Origin: Parcubacteria group bacterium Gr01-1014_38
GTDB taxonomy: Bacteria; Patescibacteriota; Andersenbacteria; UBA10190; CAIZMI01
Direction: 5' to 3'
NCBI GenBank assembly: GCA_007376145.1
Contig: VMFP01000003.1
Span: 92,741-156,740 of the forward strand
DNA: 64,000 bases
In this document: piece after piece, positions 30,811-62,037 of the stretch
Numbering within the stretch: the stretch's first letter is position 1
How the letters are laid out: the number at the start of each line of letters is the position of its first letter
Program-made: the position numbers and the translations under genes
The notes under the pieces: model-generated
The model's input: only the letters and a program-made list of their open reading frames with translations
Told to the model about the DNA's origin: nothing
Databases searched by the model: none

Positions 30811-32328
30811 ATGTCTGTGCCCCTCTCTGTGCGTCCAGTACGTCGCGGTCTTCCAGCAGCCGAAGTCATTACCGTATTTTCCGACGGGAAGACGTTCTCG
30901 CTTCCGGAAGCGGCGGCCCGCCCCGTTAGAAGCCGGGCTTCTAACGGGGCCCGCGTCGCCCGCGAACACCTCCAGCGGGCGGCGTTCAAGGGCGAGGCGC
31001 ACGAAACGCACGCGCTCCCGCTGCCCGGACGGACGGCCCGAACGCTCTTTATTGTTGGAACCGGCAAGGCCCTGACGCTCGACGTGATCCGCCGGGGCGT
31101 TGCCGCTGCCGTCCAGCACGCAAAGGCGGAAGGGCTGCGAACGGTCTCCATCATTGCGCCATTCGCGGCTGTGTTTGGCTCCGAGCTCGGTCGAGCATTT
31201 GCCGAAGGCGCCTTGCTCGCCAACTACCGCTTTACTGCGTACTCCGCCGAGACTGCGAAGCGGGAAAAGCGCCTGGCATTGCAGCGCGTCGAACTGCTAG
31301 TGCCGCCGCAAGAACGGAAGGCCGTCGAAGAAGGCGTGCAGCGCGGGACGATTGACGCCAGCGCGACAATGCTCGCGCGCGATCTCGTGAACGAGCCGGC
31401 TTCGCGCATGACGCCGCAGTCTCTCGTTGAAGAGGCGCAGAAGATCGCGAAAGCCTCACGAGGCGCGATCGAGCTGACCATCTTGGACCGCGCGCAGTGC
31501 GCCGAGCGCGGCATGGGCGCGTTCCTTGCAGTGGCACAAGGCTCAACCGCCGAACCGGCATTTCTCCACGTGGTCTATCGGCCGGCGCCAAAGCTTCCCA
31601 TCGTCGCGCTCGTCGGGAAGGGCATCACCTTCGATTCCGGCGGCTTGAGCTTAAAGCCCGCGGACGGCATGGAAACCATGAAGATCGACATGGCGGGGGC
31701 GGCCTCGGTTCTCGGCGTGTTCTCCGCGCTGCCGAAGCTGAAGTTTCCGATCGAAGTCCACGGCTTCATTGCCGCGTGCGAAAATATGCCGTCGGGATCT
31801 GCCGTAAAGCCGGGGGATATTGTCCGCACCGCATCCGGCAAAACCGTGGAGATTCTGAATACGGACGCGGAGGGACGCCTCACGCTCGCCGACGCCATAG
31901 CCGAAGCGCGCAAGGTTCGCCCGCAGGTCATTCTGGACCTGGCGACACTCACCGGCGCTTGCGTCGTTGCGCTTGGTGAAGAAGTCACCGGTCTCTTTAG
32001 CAATGACGAAGCGACCGCCGGAAAAGTGTTGCGGGCGGCGGAATCCGCGGGCGAGTACGTTTGGCGTCTTCCCTTGATTCCGGAATACCGCTCCAATCTC
32101 AAAAGCTCGGTCGCCGACATGAAAAACATCACGGGCAAGCGGTGGGGTGGAGCCATTACCGCCGCGCTCTTCCTCAAGGAATTTATCGGCAACACGCCGT
32201 GGGCGCACCTCGACATCGCGGGGCCCAGTTACGCCGAGAAGCAAACGCACCCCGCTATCCCCGTCGGCGGCACCGGCGTCGGCGTCCGCACCGTCCTCCG
32301 CTACCTCGAATCGCTGCCCACAAGATAG
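30811..32328 (+). CDS. pepA: Leucyl aminopeptidase (M17, PepA)
   Basis: M17 catalytic domain motifs (NLVNEPASRMTP, VGKGITFDSGGLSLKP, NTDAEGRLTLADAI, MKIDMAGAASV) with N-terminal domain; contains an in-frame palindromic insert at 30920..30950. Confidence 0.85.
   Translation: MSVPLSVRPVRRGLPAAEVITVFSDGKTFSLPEAAARPVRSRASNGARVAREHLQRAAFKGEAHETHALPLPGRTARTLFIVGTGKALTLDVIRRGVAAAVQHAKAEGLRTVSIIAPFAAVFGSELGRAFAEGALLANYRFTAYSAETAKREKRLALQRVELLVPPQERKAVEEGVQRGTIDASATMLARDLVNEPASRMTPQSLVEEAQKIAKASRGAIELTILDRAQCAERGMGAFLAVAQGSTAEPAFLHVVYRPAPKLPIVALVGKGITFDSGGLSLKPADGMETMKIDMAGAASVLGVFSALPKLKFPIEVHGFIAACENMPSGSAVKPGDIVRTASGKTVEILNTDAEGRLTLADAIAEARKVRPQVILDLATLTGACVVALGEEVTGLFSNDEATAGKVLRAAESAGEYVWRLPLIPEYRSNLKSSVADMKNITGKRWGGAITAALFLKEFIGNTPWAHLDIAGPSYAEKQTHPAIPVGGTGVGVRTVLRYLESLPTR
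30920..30950. repeat. Palindromic element copy 2 (14-bp stem, loop CGG; same 13-bp core), in frame within pepA N-terminal domain
   Basis: GCCCCGTTAGAAGC-CGG-GCTTCTAACGGGGC; translated in frame as RPVRSRASNGA within the PepA N-domain. Confidence 0.8.
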
Positions 32329-32376
32329 TTTTGAGTCCGATACGGGGACGATCTGCAGTTGATTCGGTACACTCCT

Positions 32377-33699
32377 ATGAACCAAGAAGGGAACGAGCAA
32401 GGAAACAAAGCTCAGCAATCTGGTACTGACGAGCTTCGCCGACAAATAACAGAAGCGGAATCGTCTTTGAGTGACATCAAAAACAAAATAGAGGAAATTC
32501 AGAAGTATTATCAGCAATTTCAGGAGCTCAAAAGCAAAATTGACGATGGGACCGTTGGCCTGAATGCCGTTTTTAAGTTTTCTCAAGACAAGAAAACCGA
32601 GCTTGAGCAGCTTTCGGCAACTGCCAACGAGAAGTTAGCAGCTATTACCCAAGCACTTGAGCGCGTTCAACAACATACTGACGAAATCAATAGAGCATAC
32701 GAAGCGTTTCAAGCAAGCCGAGACAAAGTGAATGATCCAGGAAGTGGGTTACAAGCGGTTTTGGGACAAGCTCAAAACCTTCGTGATAATGTTGCAGAAT
32801 TTAAAGCAAAGGCGGAGCAAGTATTTGAGCAAATCCAAACACAATTAAACCAAGTTCGAGACAGCACTTCCAGGATGGAAGAAGCGTATAGACAGTTTGA
32901 AGTTACTAAACAACAAATTGATGATCCAAATAGCGGTTTAGGGGCGTTACTGCAGACAGCTTCTGATTTAAGAGCCAAGATTCAGGAGGCGCAGAAATCC
33001 GCTAGTAATACGCTCGTGGAGATACAAACACTTCATGAGAACGCGAAACAAGTACTTGGCTCTACCACGGATATTAGGAATAGGATGGATGTGCTGGAAA
33101 AAGAGAGCGTGAGCTTGAAAGAAAGCATCGCCCAGATATTATCTTTGGTAACCGATAGCAGTTTAGACGATGCCTTTAAAAGGCGTAGTCAAGCGGTTCG
33201 CGATGAAACAAAGGAGTGGCGCAGGCGCCTTGAGTGGAGCATTGGACTTTTAGTTTTTGCGATAATTTTAATATACATTCTGCAATCACTGGCACCGAAC
33301 GGTTGGCAGAATTGGAAACATTGGTATCGCTATTTGTTTACCTCGCCACTTATTTTTGCTGTCATTTTCTACACAAGGCAATATACGCTTACTCGTTCTT
33401 ACGCCGAGAAATACGCTTTTAAGTCAGTTGTGGCCACAACATTGACTTCTTATGTGAAGCTTTTAAACGATAGGTTCCCGGAGCGAAAGGATGAGTTACT
33501 GGACTTTACACTAAAGACAACAGATTTGATTTACGAGCGTCCGTTTGTCGAGAAAGACACACGGCGCAAAGCACATCTATCGCTCTTCAATATTTTCCGG
33601 GGCAAGTTGGAGCTTGACGAGAAGACGACAGCAAAGATTGCCAGCAGGATAGGCCATAAGAAACCAGAGTTGGAAGCGAGCGGAGACACTCAGGAATAA
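32377..33699 (+). CDS. Repeat-containing coiled-coil protein with C-terminal 2-TM module (AT-rich island)
   Basis: Three about 55-aa helical repeats sharing [YF]xxF...D[DP]xSGLxA[LV]; two TM helices (IGLLVFAIILIYILQSLAP, YLFTSPLIFAVIFYTRQY) then about 110-aa tail; GC much lower than flanks; ATG 32377 preferred over TTG 32359. Confidence 0.6.
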   Translation: MNQEGNEQGNKAQQSGTDELRRQITEAESSLSDIKNKIEEIQKYYQQFQELKSKIDDGTVGLNAVFKFSQDKKTELEQLSATANEKLAAITQALERVQQHTDEINRAYEAFQASRDKVNDPGSGLQAVLGQAQNLRDNVAEFKAKAEQVFEQIQTQLNQVRDSTSRMEEAYRQFEVTKQQIDDPNSGLGALLQTASDLRAKIQEAQKSASNTLVEIQTLHENAKQVLGSTTDIRNRMDVLEKESVSLKESIAQILSLVTDSSLDDAFKRRSQAVRDETKEWRRRLEWSIGLLVFAIILIYILQSLAPNGWQNWKHWYRYLFTSPLIFAVIFYTRQYTLTRSYAEKYAFKSVVATTLTSYVKLLNDRFPERKDELLDFTLKTTDLIYERPFVEKDTRRKAHLSLFNIFRGKLELDEKTTAKIASRIGHKKPELEASGDTQE

Positions 33700-33843
33700 T
33701 CCCCTTAGGTAGTTTCCCATACTACGTTCGGCGATGGCGATGCTTCTCTTCGGAAAGTTCGTACGGAGCTCAATTGGGGGTTGTTTTAGACGGTCACAGC
33801 GGCTATCCTAAACTTGTTCTGTGAATGAAAAATAGACTGCCAA

Positions 33844-34647
33844 ATGGTTATAGCAGTTAAGCAAAGAATAAAGTCCAGAATCGCAAACGAAGCGGAAACG
33901 CGTAGGTTTCCGGGGGACTTTGTTAATAAAATTGTCTGTGGTGACGTCCTCGAGATTATGAAAAAAATCCCGAATGGAGCTGTAGATTTGATTGTGACTT
34001 CTCCCCCATACAACATTAAGAACTCAACAGGTAATGGTCTAAAGGACGGGCGTGGCGGAAAATGGGCGAACGCAAGTTTGCAAAAGGGATATGCGAACTA
34101 TGACGACTGTATGCCGCACGAAGAATATGTGAAGTGGCAAAGAGAATGCATAACCGAAATGTTACGTATTATCCCGGAAGACGGTGCAATTTTCTACAAC
34201 CACAAATGGCGTGTACAAGGCGGCTTATTGCAGGATCGTGAAGATATTGTTGGTGGCTTTCCTATTCGCCAGATTATTATCTGGAAGCGTAAAGGTGGAT
34301 TCAATTTCAATCCCGGCTATTTCTTGCCGACGTACGAGGTTATCTATCTGATTGCGAAACCGAAGTTCAAGCTTACGCCAAAAGCGAATGCTCACGGTGA
34401 TGTGTGGGAATTTACACAGGAGATGAACAATGATCATCCGGCTGCATTTCCATTGAATCTGATAGATCGAATCATTTCTTCAACAAGCGCAAAGATCGTT
34501 CTTGATCCATTCATGGGTTCTGGCACAACAGCAATTTCTGCTCTTAATTTTGACAGAGATTACATCGGAATTGATATTTCGCCTGAATATTGCGAGATAG
34601 CACGAAAAAGAATTGAGAACTACCGGTCCCAAAGTAGGTTCCTCTAA
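33844..34647 (+). CDS. Type II DNA methyltransferase, beta-class, likely N4-cytosine (SPPY motif IV, DPFMGSGTT motif I)
   Basis: Motif IV IVTSPPYNI precedes motif I VLDPFMGSGTTAISA (beta-class order); SPPY favours m4C specificity; directly upstream of the REase gene. Confidence 0.85.
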   Translation: MVIAVKQRIKSRIANEAETRRFPGDFVNKIVCGDVLEIMKKIPNGAVDLIVTSPPYNIKNSTGNGLKDGRGGKWANASLQKGYANYDDCMPHEEYVKWQRECITEMLRIIPEDGAIFYNHKWRVQGGLLQDREDIVGGFPIRQIIIWKRKGGFNFNPGYFLPTYEVIYLIAKPKFKLTPKANAHGDVWEFTQEMNNDHPAAFPLNLIDRIISSTSAKIVLDPFMGSGTTAISALNFDRDYIGIDISPEYCEIARKRIENYRSQSRFL

Positions 34648-34650
34648 CCA

Positions 34651-35448
34651 ATGCCAAAACAGCCAATTGTTTATACCAAGCAGGCATTGGTAGAAAAACT
34701 TAAGGAAATTGCTGCTGCAGACTGGATTCCAAATGCGCGGCGAGGGAATCAAGGAGGCGTTGGAAATACGCTTGAGGATTTGCTTGGACTTGAAGAGAAC
34801 AATTTACCATTGCCGAATGCTGGAGAATGGGAATTGAAAGTACAAAGGCTAAATTCAACTGCTCTTTGTACGCTCTTTCATATTGAACCTTCGCCTCGCG
34901 CTATTCGTTTTGTGCCACAAGTTCTTTTACCGAAATATGGCTGGGCGCACGGGGAGGACGGTAAGAGGTATGCAAAGGGCGAGATGAGCTTCAGACAAAC
35001 TATCCACGGTCTTGCTCGAAGCGATCGAGGGTTCATGGTGAAAATTGACCGCGAGGAAAGGAAAGTCTTGATTTCATTTGATGCCAAAAGCGTGGATGTA
35101 CGGCATAAAGACTGGCTTGGGTCTGTACAAAAGCGCGCTGGTCTTGGGGAACTCAACCCGCAACCATATTGGGGCTTTGATGATTTAGAACATAAAGCCG
35201 GAACAAAATTATCCAATGCTTTTTATGTTCAAGCTGAGGTTAAAACTGTACGAGGAAAGGAACACTACAAATACAGCAAAGTTATGATGCTTCAGAAGTT
35301 TAGTTTTAGGGGATTTTTAGAGGCGATTGAGGAAGCCAAAATTCTTGTGGATTTTGATGCACGCACAGGGCATAACCATGGAACAAAATTCAGAATGCGG
35401 CAGGACTGCTTGCCGATGTTATACGAAAGAAAAACTGTAGTTCTCTAA
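34651..35448 (+). CDS. Type II restriction endonuclease, MvaI/BcnI family (CCWGG/CCSGG-type monomeric REase)
   Basis: Recalled resemblance to BcnI/MvaI (GNTLEDLLGLEENNLPLPNAGEWELKV...TLFHIEP; C-terminal LVDFDARTGHNHGTKFRM); 3 nt downstream of the MTase gene; AT-rich. Confidence 0.65.
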   Translation: MPKQPIVYTKQALVEKLKEIAAADWIPNARRGNQGGVGNTLEDLLGLEENNLPLPNAGEWELKVQRLNSTALCTLFHIEPSPRAIRFVPQVLLPKYGWAHGEDGKRYAKGEMSFRQTIHGLARSDRGFMVKIDREERKVLISFDAKSVDVRHKDWLGSVQKRAGLGELNPQPYWGFDDLEHKAGTKLSNAFYVQAEVKTVRGKEHYKYSKVMMLQKFSFRGFLEAIEEAKILVDFDARTGHNHGTKFRMRQDCLPMLYERKTVVL

Positions 35449-35528
35449 TCTTTGACCAAGGCGGAGAGCAAAGTCGAAGAAAAAAATAGGAAGCCCGGGA
35501 CGGATGGTTTTGGACGAGGTCTTTTGTT

Positions 35529-36515
35529 TTAGCTCTTCTGGATCTCCACGACGACTTTTCCGCGGGGGTGGCCGGCTTGGAGATAGGTGAGCGCTGCTCC
35601 GGCCTGCTCTAACGGGAACGTCTTGTCCAGGCGTACCTTGATGACTCCTTGCTCCACCAATTCCGCGAGTTTCGAAAGGCGCTCGGTGGTGACCTGGGTG
35701 AATTGCGAGATCGCGGTCACGCCGTATTGCTGCATGAGTTCTGCGTTTGGTTGCTCCACCATCGAGACGATGACGCCGCCTTTCCGCAAGACCTTGAAGG
35801 ATCGCGCGTAGGTTTCACCGCCGACCGTGTCAAATACGGCGTCGTAGTCATGGAGGAGATCTTCGAACTTTTGTGTTTTGTAGTCAATGACCTGATCTGC
35901 GCCCAGGTCTTTGACATACTGTGCATCATCCGCGCTGGCCGTGGCCGCCACGGTGGCGCCCAGGTGCTTCGCGAGTTGGATTGCGAAGGAGCCGATGCCG
36001 CCCGCGCCGCCATGGATGAGAATGGTTTGCTTGCCCGTCGAAGCTGTAGCGGAGGCGGGGCCCTTCCCGAGCTGTATGTGTTCCGTGAGTGCCTGCAGAG
36101 CGCTGACGCCTGCGAGTGGCAGGGCAGCGGCCTCCGTGTGGCTGACGTTCTTCGACTTCCGGGCAACGGCTGTTGGGTTAGCGGAGAGGAACTCCGCGAA
36201 GGATCCCGACCCGCCGCCCAGAACGCTTGCTTGCCCGTAGACTTCGTCGCCCTTCGTGAAGCCAGACACGCCGTCGCCCACGTCCATGACGATACCCGAA
36301 AAGTCACCTCCCAGCGTTACAGGGAACTGCAACGGGGCCATCTGCTGCATATAGCCTTCGCGGATTTTCCAGTCGATGGGATTCACACCGGCCGCGTGAA
36401 CCTCGATGAGAAGATGTCCTTGAGACACCGTTGGCGTAGGCGCGTTTTCGTTGATCTCGACAACCTCACCGCCTCCGTAGCGGTTGATTTGTGCTGCTTT
36501 CATTGTGTTCTTCAT
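35529..36515 (-). CDS. Zinc-type alcohol dehydrogenase / NADPH:quinone oxidoreductase (MDR superfamily)
   Basis: GroES-like N-domain and Rossmann ILIHGGAGGIGSFAIQLAKHLGATV. Confidence 0.85.
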   Translation of the reverse strand: MKNTMKAAQINRYGGGEVVEINENAPTPTVSQGHLLIEVHAAGVNPIDWKIREGYMQQMAPLQFPVTLGGDFSGIVMDVGDGVSGFTKGDEVYGQASVLGGGSGSFAEFLSANPTAVARKSKNVSHTEAAALPLAGVSALQALTEHIQLGKGPASATASTGKQTILIHGGAGGIGSFAIQLAKHLGATVAATASADDAQYVKDLGADQVIDYKTQKFEDLLHDYDAVFDTVGGETYARSFKVLRKGGVIVSMVEQPNAELMQQYGVTAISQFTQVTTERLSKLAELVEQGVIKVRLDKTFPLEQAGAALTYLQAGHPRGKVVVEIQKS

Positions 36516-53017: not shown

Positions 53018-54094
53018 ATGTCGCGCATCATTGGCCACCTCGATATGGACGCGTTCTTCGCGGCGATTGAAGAGCGGGATACGCCGCGGTTTCAGGGGCT
53101 TCCCATCGTCGTGGGCGCGGACCCGCGTGGCGGCGCGGGGCGCGGCGTCGTCTCGACTGCCAATTATCGAGCGCGTGCGTATGGGATTCATTCGGCAATG
53201 CCGATCACGATTGCCTGGCGGCTCTCTCAAGCCGCAGTTCGAAGAGGGGACCCGGCAGCGATCTTCTTACCCGGCAATTACCATCGGTACGAAGACATCT
53301 CGCGCCGCATCATGGCTCTCCTCCGCGCCGCTGTCCCGCTCGTACAGCAGCGGAGCGTGGACGAAGCGTATTTCGATCTTAGTCACACCGGTTCTGTGCA
53401 GCGCGCCGTCGCTCTCTGCCGACGCCTCAAAGAGGAAATTCGCCAGCAGGAGCGACTGACGGCGTCAGTTGGGGTTGGCCCCAACAAGCTCATTGCGAAA
53501 ATCGCCTCCGACCTGCAGAAGCCGGATGGGTTCACGGTCGTGGAGGAGAAGGACGCCGAGGCGTTCCTTGCACCGCTCCCGATTCGGAAGGTTCCCGGCG
53601 TCGGGCCGAAAACCGAAGCCTTCTTTCATGCGAACGGCGTTCACCTCGTGCGTGACGCGCGAGCGTACTCGCGGAGTGATCTGGAAACCCTCCTCGGAAA
53701 ATGGGGCCTCGACCTGTACGAGAAACTCTGGGGACGGGACACCTCTCCCGTCCACGAAGCGTACACCGCGAAGTCTGTCGGCACGCAGGAAACGTTTAAC
53801 GTCGATACGCTCGACTCCCGCATCATTGGCGAGCATCTCTCCACTCTCTGTGCGCGCGTCCTGCGCCGACTGGAAGCCGAGGGCTTTCACCGGTTTCGTA
53901 CCGTCGTGCTCACCGTTCGGTTTGCGAATTTCCGAACGGTCTCTCGCGCTTCAACATCCACACCATCACTCCACACGCTTCAAGAGTTGCACCAGCAGGC
54001 ATTGCGACTCCTCCTGCCGTTCTTTGATGCGCGCGAAAATCCCCGTCGCGAACCTCTCCGGCTCATCGGGGTCCGCGTCGAAAAGCTGGAGTGA
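53018..54094 (+). CDS. dinB: DNA polymerase IV (Y-family)
   Basis: MSRIIGHLDMDAFFAAIEERD, SVDEAYFDL, GVGPNKLIAKIASD, HhH/little-finger region. Confidence 0.9.
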   Translation: MSRIIGHLDMDAFFAAIEERDTPRFQGLPIVVGADPRGGAGRGVVSTANYRARAYGIHSAMPITIAWRLSQAAVRRGDPAAIFLPGNYHRYEDISRRIMALLRAAVPLVQQRSVDEAYFDLSHTGSVQRAVALCRRLKEEIRQQERLTASVGVGPNKLIAKIASDLQKPDGFTVVEEKDAEAFLAPLPIRKVPGVGPKTEAFFHANGVHLVRDARAYSRSDLETLLGKWGLDLYEKLWGRDTSPVHEAYTAKSVGTQETFNVDTLDSRIIGEHLSTLCARVLRRLEAEGFHRFRTVVLTVRFANFRTVSRASTSTPSLHTLQELHQQALRLLLPFFDARENPRREPLRLIGVRVEKLE

Positions 54095-54131
54095 AAGAAC
54101 GAACGTGGTGGATTCGCAGCCTCTCTACGGA

Positions 54132-54773
54132 TCAGGATCGGTTCTGTCCACGGACATTCCGACGTTGCCAAGAAATCTTTTGAGCTCGGACGGTTGTCGT
54201 TCGAGCTTTTTTCTGTAACCACTGTTCAGCAAGAAGGAGGGCTGTCAGGGACGTCAAATCTGATGTCCGATTTTTCGCGGTTGGAATGTCCATCTTCTTC
54301 ACGTTGGCTGCCTCTTGAATGTCTCTTGCCTGTGACCGGACACCTTTTGTACAATACGTAAGATATATGTGCGCTTTTGTGGTAAGAAAACTCGGTGCAC
54401 GCCAGTAGGATCCGAGTTCGATCCATGTTTCTGCGGTATATCCAATTTCTTCTTCAAACTCTCGTTGCGCTGCTGCAAGGGGAGACGAATCCGTTGGCTC
54501 AACGAAACCCATTGGAAGGTTATAAATGGGGGACTGAGGGATTGGGCGCCATTGGTGCAACATCAGCACCTCTTTCGTTTTGAGGAGCGGTACAATTATT
54601 ACGAAGTCGGGCTTCTGGACAAAATAATATTCAGGAATAAATGTGCCATTTGGAAGGTAAAAAGATTCCTTCCACACGGTGATCCATTTATTAGAGAGAA
54701 GTATCTTCTTGTTCTCTCCTTTTCTCTCTCCCAGTACCATGCGGAGCAGTATGAGAGAGATGTGGTATTTCAT
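54132..54773 (-). CDS. NUDIX hydrolase (ADP-ribose pyrophosphatase-like), lower-GC gene
   Basis: Nudix box GFVEPTDSSPLAAAQREFEEEIGY; N-terminal substrate domain (FYLPNGTFIPEYYFV); markedly AT-richer than surroundings. Confidence 0.7.
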   Translation of the reverse strand: MKYHISLILLRMVLGERKGENKKILLSNKWITVWKESFYLPNGTFIPEYYFVQKPDFVIIVPLLKTKEVLMLHQWRPIPQSPIYNLPMGFVEPTDSSPLAAAQREFEEEIGYTAETWIELGSYWRAPSFLTTKAHIYLTYCTKGVRSQARDIQEAANVKKMDIPTAKNRTSDLTSLTALLLAEQWLQKKARTTTVRAQKISWQRRNVRGQNRS

Positions 54774-55200
54774 CAAGGAGTTTGCGTCGCCCTGGACGAC
54801 GAAAGCACCCATTCAACTGTGGAGCAAGTACACCTAATGTGGAACCCGCTGATGCTGGAAATCCACGTGTTTTCGCGCCTGTCGGAGAACACGAGACTAC
54901 CAGCACAACTTACGCGGTGAGGGGTTTGGAACCGCACTGGCTGTGGAAGTTTCCTGCCTTGCGTGGTAGGGTTTTTGCATGGCAAGCCTTCCTGTAACAT
55001 TCGCGCCGGCTCGCGGACGCGCCGTCGCATCCTCCGCATTGAGGTTGATGCCGGGAAGTTCGAGCGTCTCGCGGCCGACTTCGGCTTCTTCGGGCCGGAG
55101 TTTCTCGCAAGTCTCGAACGCGCGGAAGCGGATGTACGCGCGGGACGCGCACGGAAGATTTCCTCTCTTCGCGCACTGAAGCTTCCTTAAGACCGCGGAA

Positions 55201-60850: not shown

Positions 60851-61131
60851 ACTGGTGGAGATGGTGTCTCAGGTTTAGAACCGTTTCAAGCCATTCTGGA
60901 GGCGTTCCGGGTGCTCTCTGGAAATCTTGCGGCTCGTTAGTCACGCGGAAGTATAGTGGGAAGTCTTGGTGTGGAGCCTAGGGGTACCCCCCGCGAGGAA
61001 AATGGGGGAAGAACTATACTGGCCCTAATGTAATTCGTCCTTTCTTTTACTACCACCCCTTTATTCGGGCAGCATGGGTCCCATCCTCGGGAGCTTAGGG
61101 GGAGAAAATGCGCGAACCTTCGTGCTAGAGT

Positions 61132-62037
61132 GTGCCAGCCATGAGCGAAACAGAGGTTCTAGAGAACGTTAGGAAAATTCTTGATGTCATTCTCGAACTC
61201 GGCGTGCGACAGCAGGCGGCGTACAAGTCCCTGCATTTGAAAGGCAGTGGGCTTTATGTTCCGAAAGTAATCCATGAAGGATGGGTGTTGAAGAAGCCGA
61301 AAGTACATCAGCACCTCCTTCTTGAGGCATTCTGGGACGCCTATGCAGAAGTGGCGGCTAGCATCGAGCGCCCGATTGTGAGCTTTGCCATTCGCCCGCT
61401 TCTTGAACTTTCGTTTGGCAAAGCAATTTTCTTTGGAGAACTGAAGAATGAGAAGGAGCGGGAGGAAAAGGCGCTCAAATACCATTTGCTCGGCCTGGCT
61501 TTCTCTATACCCCACAGTGACGATTCTTCGTTGCGTGCACAATATAAAGCTTTGCTTCCATTTCTTTCACCACAGGATCGTCATGTCTATGAACAAATAC
61601 GGGAAAAGGGGTTCCCACCGGATGAAGTGTCGGATCGCCTTTACCGTTTGTATCCTTCAGTGAGAAGCGAAAGGGTTATAAGCATGGTGAAGAAATACTG
61701 GCTCAATATCTACGGAAGGCCGATAGATGAGGAAGCCATCGCCGGAGTCTTCCGCATATACTCCGGGTTTGTGCATCCGTATGTTTACCATCTCACCAGT
61801 CTGGAGGAACAAGCGAAGCACAAAATGCATCTCTTCCGGTCCGCCTCACTCTTATTTCTCCTCGGCATATCAACCGTCATCTTCGCGAATACCCTCACGC
61901 ACAACGCTGTCACGGCAGAGGAGATCGCGAATATTCGTGCGGAGGTCCAATCCCTATTTCCTTCCTTACTTCAATATACTGCGCGTGGTCATAGGCAAAG
62001 AGCCGCAAAATCAGCATCATCGGAACACGCCGAATAA
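61132..62037 (+). CDS. Hypothetical protein (lower GC)
   Basis: 301-aa ORF, about 50% GC, no recognisable motif; 3' end overlaps the convergent XRE gene by 21 nt. Confidence 0.5.
   Translation: MPAMSETEVLENVRKILDVILELGVRQQAAYKSLHLKGSGLYVPKVIHEGWVLKKPKVHQHLLLEAFWDAYAEVAASIERPIVSFAIRPLLELSFGKAIFFGELKNEKEREEKALKYHLLGLAFSIPHSDDSSLRAQYKALLPFLSPQDRHVYEQIREKGFPPDEVSDRLYRLYPSVRSERVISMVKKYWLNIYGRPIDEEAIAGVFRIYSGFVHPYVYHLTSLEEQAKHKMHLFRSASLLFLLGISTVIFANTLTHNAVTAEEIANIRAEVQSLFPSLLQYTARGHRQRAAKSASSEHAE

Follow-up and report, generated by a model that had tools for sequence, protein, structure and literature searches.

The window analysed here is a stretch of 64,000 nucleotides (nt) from the genome of Parcubacteria group bacterium Gr01-1014_38 (contig VMFP01000003.1, positions 92,741 to 156,740). 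Near its middle lies a short island of low guanine-plus-cytosine (GC) content, which holds a gene for a protein of 440 amino acids (aa), a DNA methyltransferase gene and an endonuclease gene, and nothing else (Table 1). The first of the three is the subject of this study; it is called the family gene below and is written X in gene orders. The original prediction had placed it upstream of a restriction-modification (R-M) pair in a foreign island. This is borne out by the matches of the two enzyme genes to known methyltransferase and endonuclease families and by the sharp steps in GC content. At the island start, GC falls from ~0.62 to ~0.44 within 100-200 nt at ~32330, next to an M17 aminopeptidase gene that ends at 32328. 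At the island end it rises again at ~35450-35600, ahead of a Zn-dependent dehydrogenase gene (35529-36515, - strand; both flanking genes have housekeeping roles and were assigned with Pfam). The endonuclease gene begins 3 nt past the stop codon of the methyltransferase gene. No direct repeats flanking the island were found. We conclude that the family gene entered the genome within this three-gene low-GC island, alongside the MvaI/BcnI-type R-M pair.

The 440-aa product is identical to the deposited NCBI protein of the same bacterium, which carries the name 'methyl-accepting chemotaxis sensory transducer'. An alternative TTG start at 32359, six codons upstream, would yield a product of 446 aa, and this is the numbering on which the original prediction was based.

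The N-terminal part of the protein contains three in-register units of exactly 63 aa each. Their pairwise local alignment scores are 73-94, compared with 24 +/- 5 for shuffled sequences (z = 10.8-13.2), and none of 500 shuffles attained the observed score; for repeat 1 against repeats 2 and 3, z is 10.8-12.7. The three helical repeats described earlier are therefore real, although their period is 63 aa and not the ~55 aa first assumed. Every unit ends in a [DN]-D-[PG]-x-[SV]-G-L turn. The stricter motif that had been proposed, D-[DP]-x-S-G-L, occurs in repeats 2 (DPGSGL at residue 120) and 3 (DPNSGL at residue 183) only, and is degenerate in repeat 1, which reads DDGTVGL. The turn motif has left a trace at the DNA level in the form of a direct repeat (D4, 32732-32751 / 32921-32940). 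Apart from G130 and G228, the Gly and Pro residues between positions 17 and 285 are confined to the three turns, and in the full-length AlphaFold model, which is of low confidence (predicted local distance difference test, pLDDT, 57.5), the helices break exactly at these turns. The N-terminal 240 residues form a rod of long helices, which is probably cytoplasmic.

The same unit is found in homologues, with the consensus Y-[YF]-x-x-F-x-x-L-[KR]-x-K-[ILV]-x-D-x-x-x-G-[LIM]-x-A-x-L and a spacing of 63-64 residues. A repeat hidden Markov model (HMM) detected one to three units, ~63 residues apart, in 64 of 162 sampled family proteins. Protein length runs from ~270 aa with one unit to 440-460 aa with three, as if the length of the rod were tuned stepwise. 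Mean identity is 36% in the N-terminal part vs 52% in the C-terminal part, so that the former evolves faster. A repeat-profile search for the unit on other types of effector returned three fragments only among the candidates listed.

Behind the repeats lies a conserved C-terminal module. It begins with a helix of the pattern L-V-T-x-S-S-L-x-x-x-F-x-x-R...W, which precedes the first transmembrane (TM) helix, TM1. A short Trp-rich loop, the second helix (TM2) with an invariant Pro, the motif Y-x-x-x-R-x-x-x-E-x-Y-A-F-K and two more helices follow in this order. TM1 is strongly hydrophobic, and the 20 residues that precede it include 8 K/R. The second hydrophobic helix is probably a TM helix or a re-entrant helix. 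It is conserved across the family, its P324 is invariant, and it is modelled with pLDDT > 90. An AlphaFold model of the C-terminal region, obtained with 43 sequences (pLDDT 79.4, predicted template modelling score, pTM, 0.65), places a 7-residue non-helical break between the two helices. Of the two close TM helices originally claimed, the first and the narrow gap are thus well founded, whereas the hydrophobicity of the second is marginal (1.04 over 19 residues, against 2.38 for TM1).

The signature just past TM2 is the most constrained element of the module. E344, Y346, A347, F348 and K349 do not vary within the close family, and across 43 diverse members W281, P324, Y346 and K349 are invariant and E344 nearly so. 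Conservation in the protein is highest in the first half of the 101-aa C-terminal tail (Y336, R340, E344, Y346-A-F-K349). The tail had been described as basic and ~110 aa long; it is indeed present, but it is only weakly basic, with 20 K/R vs 17 D/E and a net charge of +3. The distribution of charges along the sequence suggests a hairpin with both ends in the cytoplasm (N-in/C-in). The layout first proposed, in which a soluble helical N-terminal region precedes a membrane hairpin at the C-terminal end, is supported.

Table 1. Features of the family gene and its island, followed by genes at other loci. Positions are those of the window unless an accession or locus precedes them; nucleotide positions refer to DNA and residue numbers to the 440-aa protein.
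Feature	Position	Strand	Basis or remark
Low-GC island, 3.2 kb, exactly three genes	32330..35500	.	~44% GC in a 60-65% GC genome
Family gene, 440 aa	32377..33699	+	ATG start; N-terminal helical-repeat rod (probable) and C-terminal membrane-hairpin module (predicted)
Repeat 1, residues 26-88	32452..32640	+	turn DDGTVGL, residues 56-62, nt 32542-32562; repeat-HMM match 27-87
Repeat 2, residues 89-151	32641..32829	+	turn NDPGSGL, residues 119-125, nt 32731-32751
Repeat 3, residues 152-214	32830..33018	+	turn DDPNSGL, residues 182-188, nt 32920-32940
Conserved C-terminal module, residues 240-412	33094..33612	+	profile search, conserved residues, AlphaFold
TM helix 1, residues 287-307, WSIGLLVFAIILIYILQSLAP	33235..33297	+	Kyte-Doolittle 2.38 over 19 residues
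Second hydrophobic helix, residues 317-336, core 319-333	33325..33384	+	Kyte-Doolittle 1.64 (15 residues), 1.04 (19 residues)
Signature motif E-K-Y-A-F-K, residues 344-349	33406..33423	+	just past TM2
Type II DNA methyltransferase, N4/N6 class	33844..34647	+	PF01555 E = 1.1e-41; PADLOC MTase_II E = 1.9e-123
Type II endonuclease, MvaI/BcnI family	34651..35448	+	PF15515 E = 1.6e-61; PADLOC REase_II E = 6.7e-79
456-aa 'hypothetical protein' WP_001030448.1 (L019), Acinetobacter baumannii AYE plasmid p3ABAYE	NC_010404.1, 6116-7486		
LexA-S24-methyltransferase open reading frame	L081:5512-7029	-	crude open-reading-frame call
LexA-S24-methyltransferase open reading frame	L084:1036-2394	-	crude open-reading-frame call
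LexA-S24-methyltransferase open reading frame	L087:450-2048	-	crude open-reading-frame call

The module defines a large family. A word-indexed search returned 12 homologues. When 1.84 billion representatives of 50%-identity clusters were searched with a profile of the C-terminal 174 residues, 2,209 of them matched at E<=1e-3, of which 932 reached E<=1e-10. Against this module profile, whose alignment includes it, the window protein scores 251.8 bits. In the best 150 matches listed, the module is always C-terminal and stands behind 0-405 residues of helical sequence. The hosts belong to the Acidobacteriota, Bacteroidota, Ignavibacteriota, Verrucomicrobiota, Armatimonadota, Nitrospirota, Planctomycetota, Proteobacteria and the candidate phyla radiation. 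The family gene belongs to the host side, as viruses are nearly devoid of the family, with 0 and 1 loci in 2.9 million viral contigs (IMG/VR) and no member in 50,697 phage records.

Searches of Pfam, NCBIfam and PADLOC with the whole protein and with the C-terminal region gave only coiled-coil noise, namely ATG17-like, SMC/Rad50, LmuB and JetC matches and the tail of ZorA. No family recurred among 10 diverse members (Pfam) or among 43 modules (Pfam and PADLOC), and any single Pfam family was matched by at most 5 of the 43 diverse modules. In sequence searches of the PDB, the module profile found no relative, and the full-length profile found coiled coils only, including a methyl-accepting chemotaxis protein (MCP). 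Foldseek against the PDB gave nothing at E<=1e-3 for the low-confidence full-length model and generic helical hairpins (HlyD, SH3BP5, Vipp1; best E = 0.58) for the C-terminal model. No paper on this family was found in the literature. It is thus a large family of bacterial membrane proteins that Pfam, NCBIfam and PADLOC do not contain. Accessory genes that lie within R-M loci are known in kind; what is new is the uncatalogued protein family that carries this role.

The genomic surroundings were compared within a close clade, defined by at least 38% identity in the C-terminal module. It provides 13 loci with readable flanks, the window included; at three more the gene lies at a contig edge and the flanks are uninformative. 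R-M genes adjoin the family gene in all 13 readable loci. Next to the N4/N6 methyltransferase and MvaI/BcnI endonuclease of the window, the partners comprise an HNH endonuclease with a C5 methyltransferase and Vsr (L001, whose protein is 59% identical to the window copy), a TaqI-like endonuclease with a methyltransferase (L081), HNH and/or methyltransferase genes (L084, L087) and, in L088, the series C5 methyltransferase, R.HinP1I, Vsr, X and RhuM. The remaining seven loci carry type I R-M systems. Three of them (L002, L005, L017) have the order hsdM-hsdS-X-hsdR, in which X is 2-11 nt away from its neighbours or overlaps hsdR by 4 nt. The other four, L082, L083, L089 and L090, are arranged alike, with X between hsdS and hsdR in L083 and L090.

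The hsdS-X-hsdR order recurs outside the close clade, in Methylotenera and in a Crocinitomicaceae genome (L049, L077). Altogether, at least nine loci have the family gene inside a type I operon, where it is either flanked by hsdS and hsdR or adjoins one of the two. Wherever the system is of type I, hsdR is present and intact, with 957-1071 aa. When the modules were placed on a rough neighbour-joining tree, type I contexts did not separate from type II contexts but interleaved with them. Therefore, the family gene has switched R-M partners repeatedly while keeping the association. In the clade of the window, the family gene is an accessory component of R-M cassettes.

Links to defence extend to distant relatives. 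A member on an Acinetobacter plasmid (105 bits to the module profile), WP_001030448.1, is encoded between pglX and pglZ in an operon of the bacteriophage exclusion system BREX-1, and its gene overlaps each neighbour by 4 nt. This pglX-X-pglZ arrangement, with the family gene in the middle, was found on 24 Acinetobacter plasmids. The slot between pglX and pglZ has been reported to hold a DUF262 gene or a 'hypothetical protein', and its occupants were termed 'intruding genes' (PMC10117892). Elsewhere the gene order is hsdR-Fic-X-hsdMS (L095), or a GmrSD/HNH gene comes after the family gene (L109). In L007 (protein P0012), a type III R-M system stands beside the family gene on an island that also carries Abi_2 and a cyclic oligonucleotide-based antiphage signalling system (CBASS). 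This island (L007 197-13236) is densely packed with defence genes and bounded by an integrase; it includes the CBASS genes (SMODS and SAVED), a 662-aa Mod with a 970-aa Res, and Abi_2. The defence link that had been predicted from the window alone thus holds for all 13 readable close loci, through R-M genes, and is seen again in the BREX, type III and type IV neighbours of distant relatives.

We propose, with a probability of roughly 0.45, that the protein is an effector that is linked to R-M and acts on the membrane, as a second line of defence or as a guardian, in analogy to PrrC or Ronin but without homology to either. Its two halves fit such a role, since the fast-evolving N-terminal part with its one to three repeats is sensor-like and the conserved C-terminal part is effector-like. 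The membrane topology, the role in defence, the damage to the membrane and the trigger are inferred. Before infection, the protein would be latent in the membrane. The last helix of the rod would run directly into the membrane hairpin, formed by TM1, a Trp-rich outer loop of 8-12 residues and the weaker TM2, and the chain would then re-enter the cytoplasm as a helix bearing Y..R...E.YAFK. Activation might occur when a phage evades or inhibits the neighbouring methylation-based defence. Alternatively, the fast-evolving helical rod may sense an infection-linked cue. Because the partner systems share no subunit, a general infection cue, or one to which the rod is adapted, appears likelier than a fixed protein contact. 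The hairpin modules would then oligomerise and compromise the membrane by depolarisation or leakage, and the infected cell would be halted according to an abortive-infection or 'guardian' logic. Pore formation, toxicity and abortive infection are suggested here by analogy with known systems. To our knowledge, abortive-type defence is little documented in reduced-genome Parcubacteria.

It is more doubtful that the family as a whole forms a new and widespread guardian-effector class serving R-M types I-III and BREX, with type IV neighbours. Within such a class, one polypeptide would combine both functions; the repeat rod might sense the failure or inhibition of defence, or an infection cue, and the hairpin might collapse the membrane, in many phyla; this extension, too, is speculative.

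Several observations weigh against the guardian proposal. The arrangement in the window is loose, with 144 nt separating the family gene from the methyltransferase gene, and the promoter and terminator signals around the family gene do not exceed those of shuffled sequences, either way. The hairpin topology is insecure because TM2 is marginally hydrophobic. No known pore-former or defence model was matched in Pfam, NCBIfam, PADLOC 2.0, PDB sequences or Foldseek against the PDB. The partner R-M systems have no protein in common, which makes a PrrC-like guard of one enzyme hard to generalise. The close-clade loci are not completely independent, as several of them are related type I cassettes. 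Finally, the clade named after its LEEEYAFK motif, sampled at 60 genomic loci, has mostly housekeeping flanks, with R-M genes nearby in ~6. It consists mostly of Acidobacteriota forms of 520-650 aa, flanked by genes for ribonucleotide reductase, gyrase, ParA and others, and a further member adjoins a HipA toxin-antitoxin pair with no R-M system. Therefore, the module is not intrinsically an R-M component, and the R-M link is a property of particular clades, that of the window included. Among L020-L079, class II ribonucleotide reductase is the commonest neighbour of the Acidobacteriota clade (4 loci). These neighbours hint at vertical inheritance and possibly at a different role in that clade.

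A fairly unlikely alternative is that the protein assists methylation-based defence in a structural or regulatory capacity, without killing the cell. It could be a membrane anchor or scaffold for R-M or BREX complexes, for example at sites of DNA entry, a factor that tempers restriction during establishment, or a protein that excludes incoming DNA. The tight spacing between hsdS, X and hsdR (2-11 nt, or the 4-nt overlap with hsdR) suggests co-production with the enzyme subunits, as do the 4-nt overlaps of the BREX copy with both pglX and pglZ, and a long rigid rod that grows in steps of 63 residues resembles a spacer or ruler. Moreover, hsdR is intact in all type I examples, which implies working R-M systems and not decoys. 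Against this stands the diversity of the partners, since types I, II, III, BREX and type IV offer no common subunit to anchor, and close copies adjoin non-homologous enzymes, as in the window and its 59% identical relative L001. Most R-M systems of these types do without the family gene, and we know of no need for a membrane partner in simple type II pairs such as MvaI/BcnI. We also consider it improbable that the protein is a passenger with no mechanistic tie to R-M, such as a membrane-stress, membrane-remodelling or addiction-type protein travelling on the same mobile islands. This would suit the very large size of the family (2,209 clusters), the position of its biggest sampled clade, that of the Acidobacteriota, amid housekeeping genes, the HipA-linked member and a weak, non-significant fold likeness to helical hairpins of the Vipp1/ESCRT-III type. 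However, all 13 informative close loci are R-M-adjacent, with at least five unrelated types of endonuclease. The gene also sits inside operons (hsdS-X-hsdR, pglX-X-pglZ) in four phyla, and its partner types switch on the tree while the association is kept. Chance hitch-hiking fails to predict this pattern of adjacency, operon insertion and partner switching.

The original prediction had likened the C-terminal hairpin to SLATT-like modules, and a divergent SLATT-type two-TM effector of a nucleotide-signalling defence system would share the general layout, in which a protein linked to defence carries a membrane module of two helices. The distant member of L007 even shares its island with a CBASS operon. 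Nevertheless, this assignment is very improbable. At E<=10 the C-terminal region matches Fijivirus_P9-2, Synaptobrevin and DUF7249 only, with none of SLATT_1-5 or SLATT_fungal, and across 43 diverse modules no SLATT model is in the set of matches listed. The PADLOC '2TM effector' model is touched by 1 of the 43 members, at E = 0.014. Neither the island nor the R-M operons contain a cyclase, SLOG, SAVED, TIR or CARF partner, and the CBASS of L007 has a SAVED effector of its own. We therefore reject SLATT membership, for lack of both a profile match and a linkage to nucleotide signalling; moreover, the F..R / W / P / Y..R...E.YAFK signature is specific to the family of the window protein.

Least credible of all is the deposited assignment to the methyl-accepting chemotaxis proteins, to which we give next to no weight. 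Its basis is a match of the N-terminal profile to the helical cytoplasmic domain of a Thermotoga MCP (PDB 2ch7; 26 bits, E = 2.8e-5). Equal scores are obtained from nucleoporins, designed coiled coils, myosin and keratin, so that the likeness is one of coiled coils. MCPsignal and HAMP are not among the 25 best of 53 Pfam matches at E<=1 (down to E = 0.047). The topology is the reverse of that of an MCP, with the soluble part first and the TM helices last, and the genomic context is R-M instead of che genes. Confident homology to a chemoreceptor or a cell-division protein, which had been named in advance as counter-evidence to an effector, was thus not found. The deposited name is almost certainly an artefact and should be corrected.

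The closest known systems include the anticodon nucleases PrrC and RloC. The prrC gene lies between hsdS and hsdR. It has been described as embedded in the type Ic R-M locus ecoprrI, and PrrC is unleashed by a phage anti-restriction peptide (PMC12707154). The family resembles this arrangement in that homologues are embedded in type I R-M loci, although the partner in the window is a type II pair, and the proposed logic, an accessory killer that would back up an R-M system, is the same. On the other hand, the family protein lacks ABC-type ATPase and anticodon-nuclease domains (Pfam, NCBIfam), shows no sequence similarity to PrrC or RloC and is a membrane protein. Unlike PrrC, it also accompanies type II, type III, BREX and type IV systems. 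In Ronin, the TM protein RonA, of 61 aa and with a single predicted TM helix, is encoded in linkage with hsdMS or BREX and kills when Ocr or ArdA appear; damage to the inner membrane has been proposed as its action, and Ronin loci are devoid of hsdR, the HsdMS pair serving as a decoy (bioRxiv 10.1101/2023.04.06.535777). The family protein is also a membrane protein, and its gene is likewise in tight linkage with type I hsd genes or with BREX. It differs in its length of 340-460 aa, its conserved two-helix module, its rod, which RonA lacks, and the intact hsdR beside it. Given the difference in size, homology to RonA, which was compared by its description, is unlikely.

A small membrane module also acts as the killing arm in the two-TM effector of Retron Ec48, a guard of RecBCD, in RexB, and in the TM effectors of CBASS and of the pyrimidine cyclase system for antiphage resistance (Pycsar). 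Unlike in these systems, the family gene has no reverse transcriptase, cyclase or sensor gene as a partner, sensing would fall to the protein's own N-terminal rod, and no PADLOC model of these systems matches. With the toxins ClyA, Hbl and YaxAB the protein shares architecture only, namely long antiparallel helices with a hydrophobic hairpin at one end. A ClyA/Hbl assignment was rejected, as Bacillus_HBL was matched at E = 0.04 with 14.2 bits, below the cut-off of 29.1 bits. The fold is also absent from the matches at E<=0.001 and from the 50 best Foldseek matches in the PDB, for which the full-length model is of low confidence. In addition, these toxins are secreted, whereas the family protein would reside in the cytoplasmic membrane. 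A ZorA/MotA-like protein of the Zorya system was also rejected. The PADLOC ZorA match (E = 8.4e-5) aligns residues 9-280, that is, the rod, with positions 342-612 of the 636 in the profile, and misses the TM region of the protein.

If the guardian reading is correct, an unannotated family of thousands of members would join the short list of R-M 'guardians', namely PrrC, the phage anti-restriction-induced system (PARIS) and Ronin. A single back-up module would then be pluggable into type I, II and III R-M and BREX operons, which bears on how the layers of immunity are connected and how cells police phage anti-restriction. It would also represent a new membrane-effector fold with a repeat-based sensor whose length varies in steps of 63 residues. 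The window offers a minimal three-gene cassette, and hence the proposal is directly testable. Even if the mechanism is wrong, the family merits a profile in Pfam and in the defence databases.

Other genes recur beside the family gene. A gene for a YgjP-like metal-dependent hydrolase (184-232 aa) follows hsdR in L002, L005, L077, L083, L089 and L090, that is, in every family-carrying type I operon whose downstream flank is in view. Upstream, L002 and L005 encode a serine recombinase, a hint that the cassette is mobile. In three loci (L081, L084, L087), single open reading frames of 452-532 aa combine a LexA DNA-binding domain, an S24 self-cleaving peptidase and an N4/N6 methyltransferase (Table 1). 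Their transcription diverges from that of the family gene, and two of the three have a TaqI-like or HNH endonuclease alongside. The fusion of a LexA-like repressor to an R-M methylase suggests SOS-responsive control of restriction. In a quick look, no convincing operator palindrome common to these fusions and the family gene was seen. Genes of the RhuM and Fic families often sit within R-M loci. Here, a RhuM-family gene (L088:4371-5387) and a Fic-family gene (L095:1999-3141) directly adjoin the family gene inside R-M loci. In the window itself, GC content dips to 0.50-0.54, against 0.60-0.65, at 47001-48000, 54001-55000 and 61001-62000, and these may be other acquired segments.

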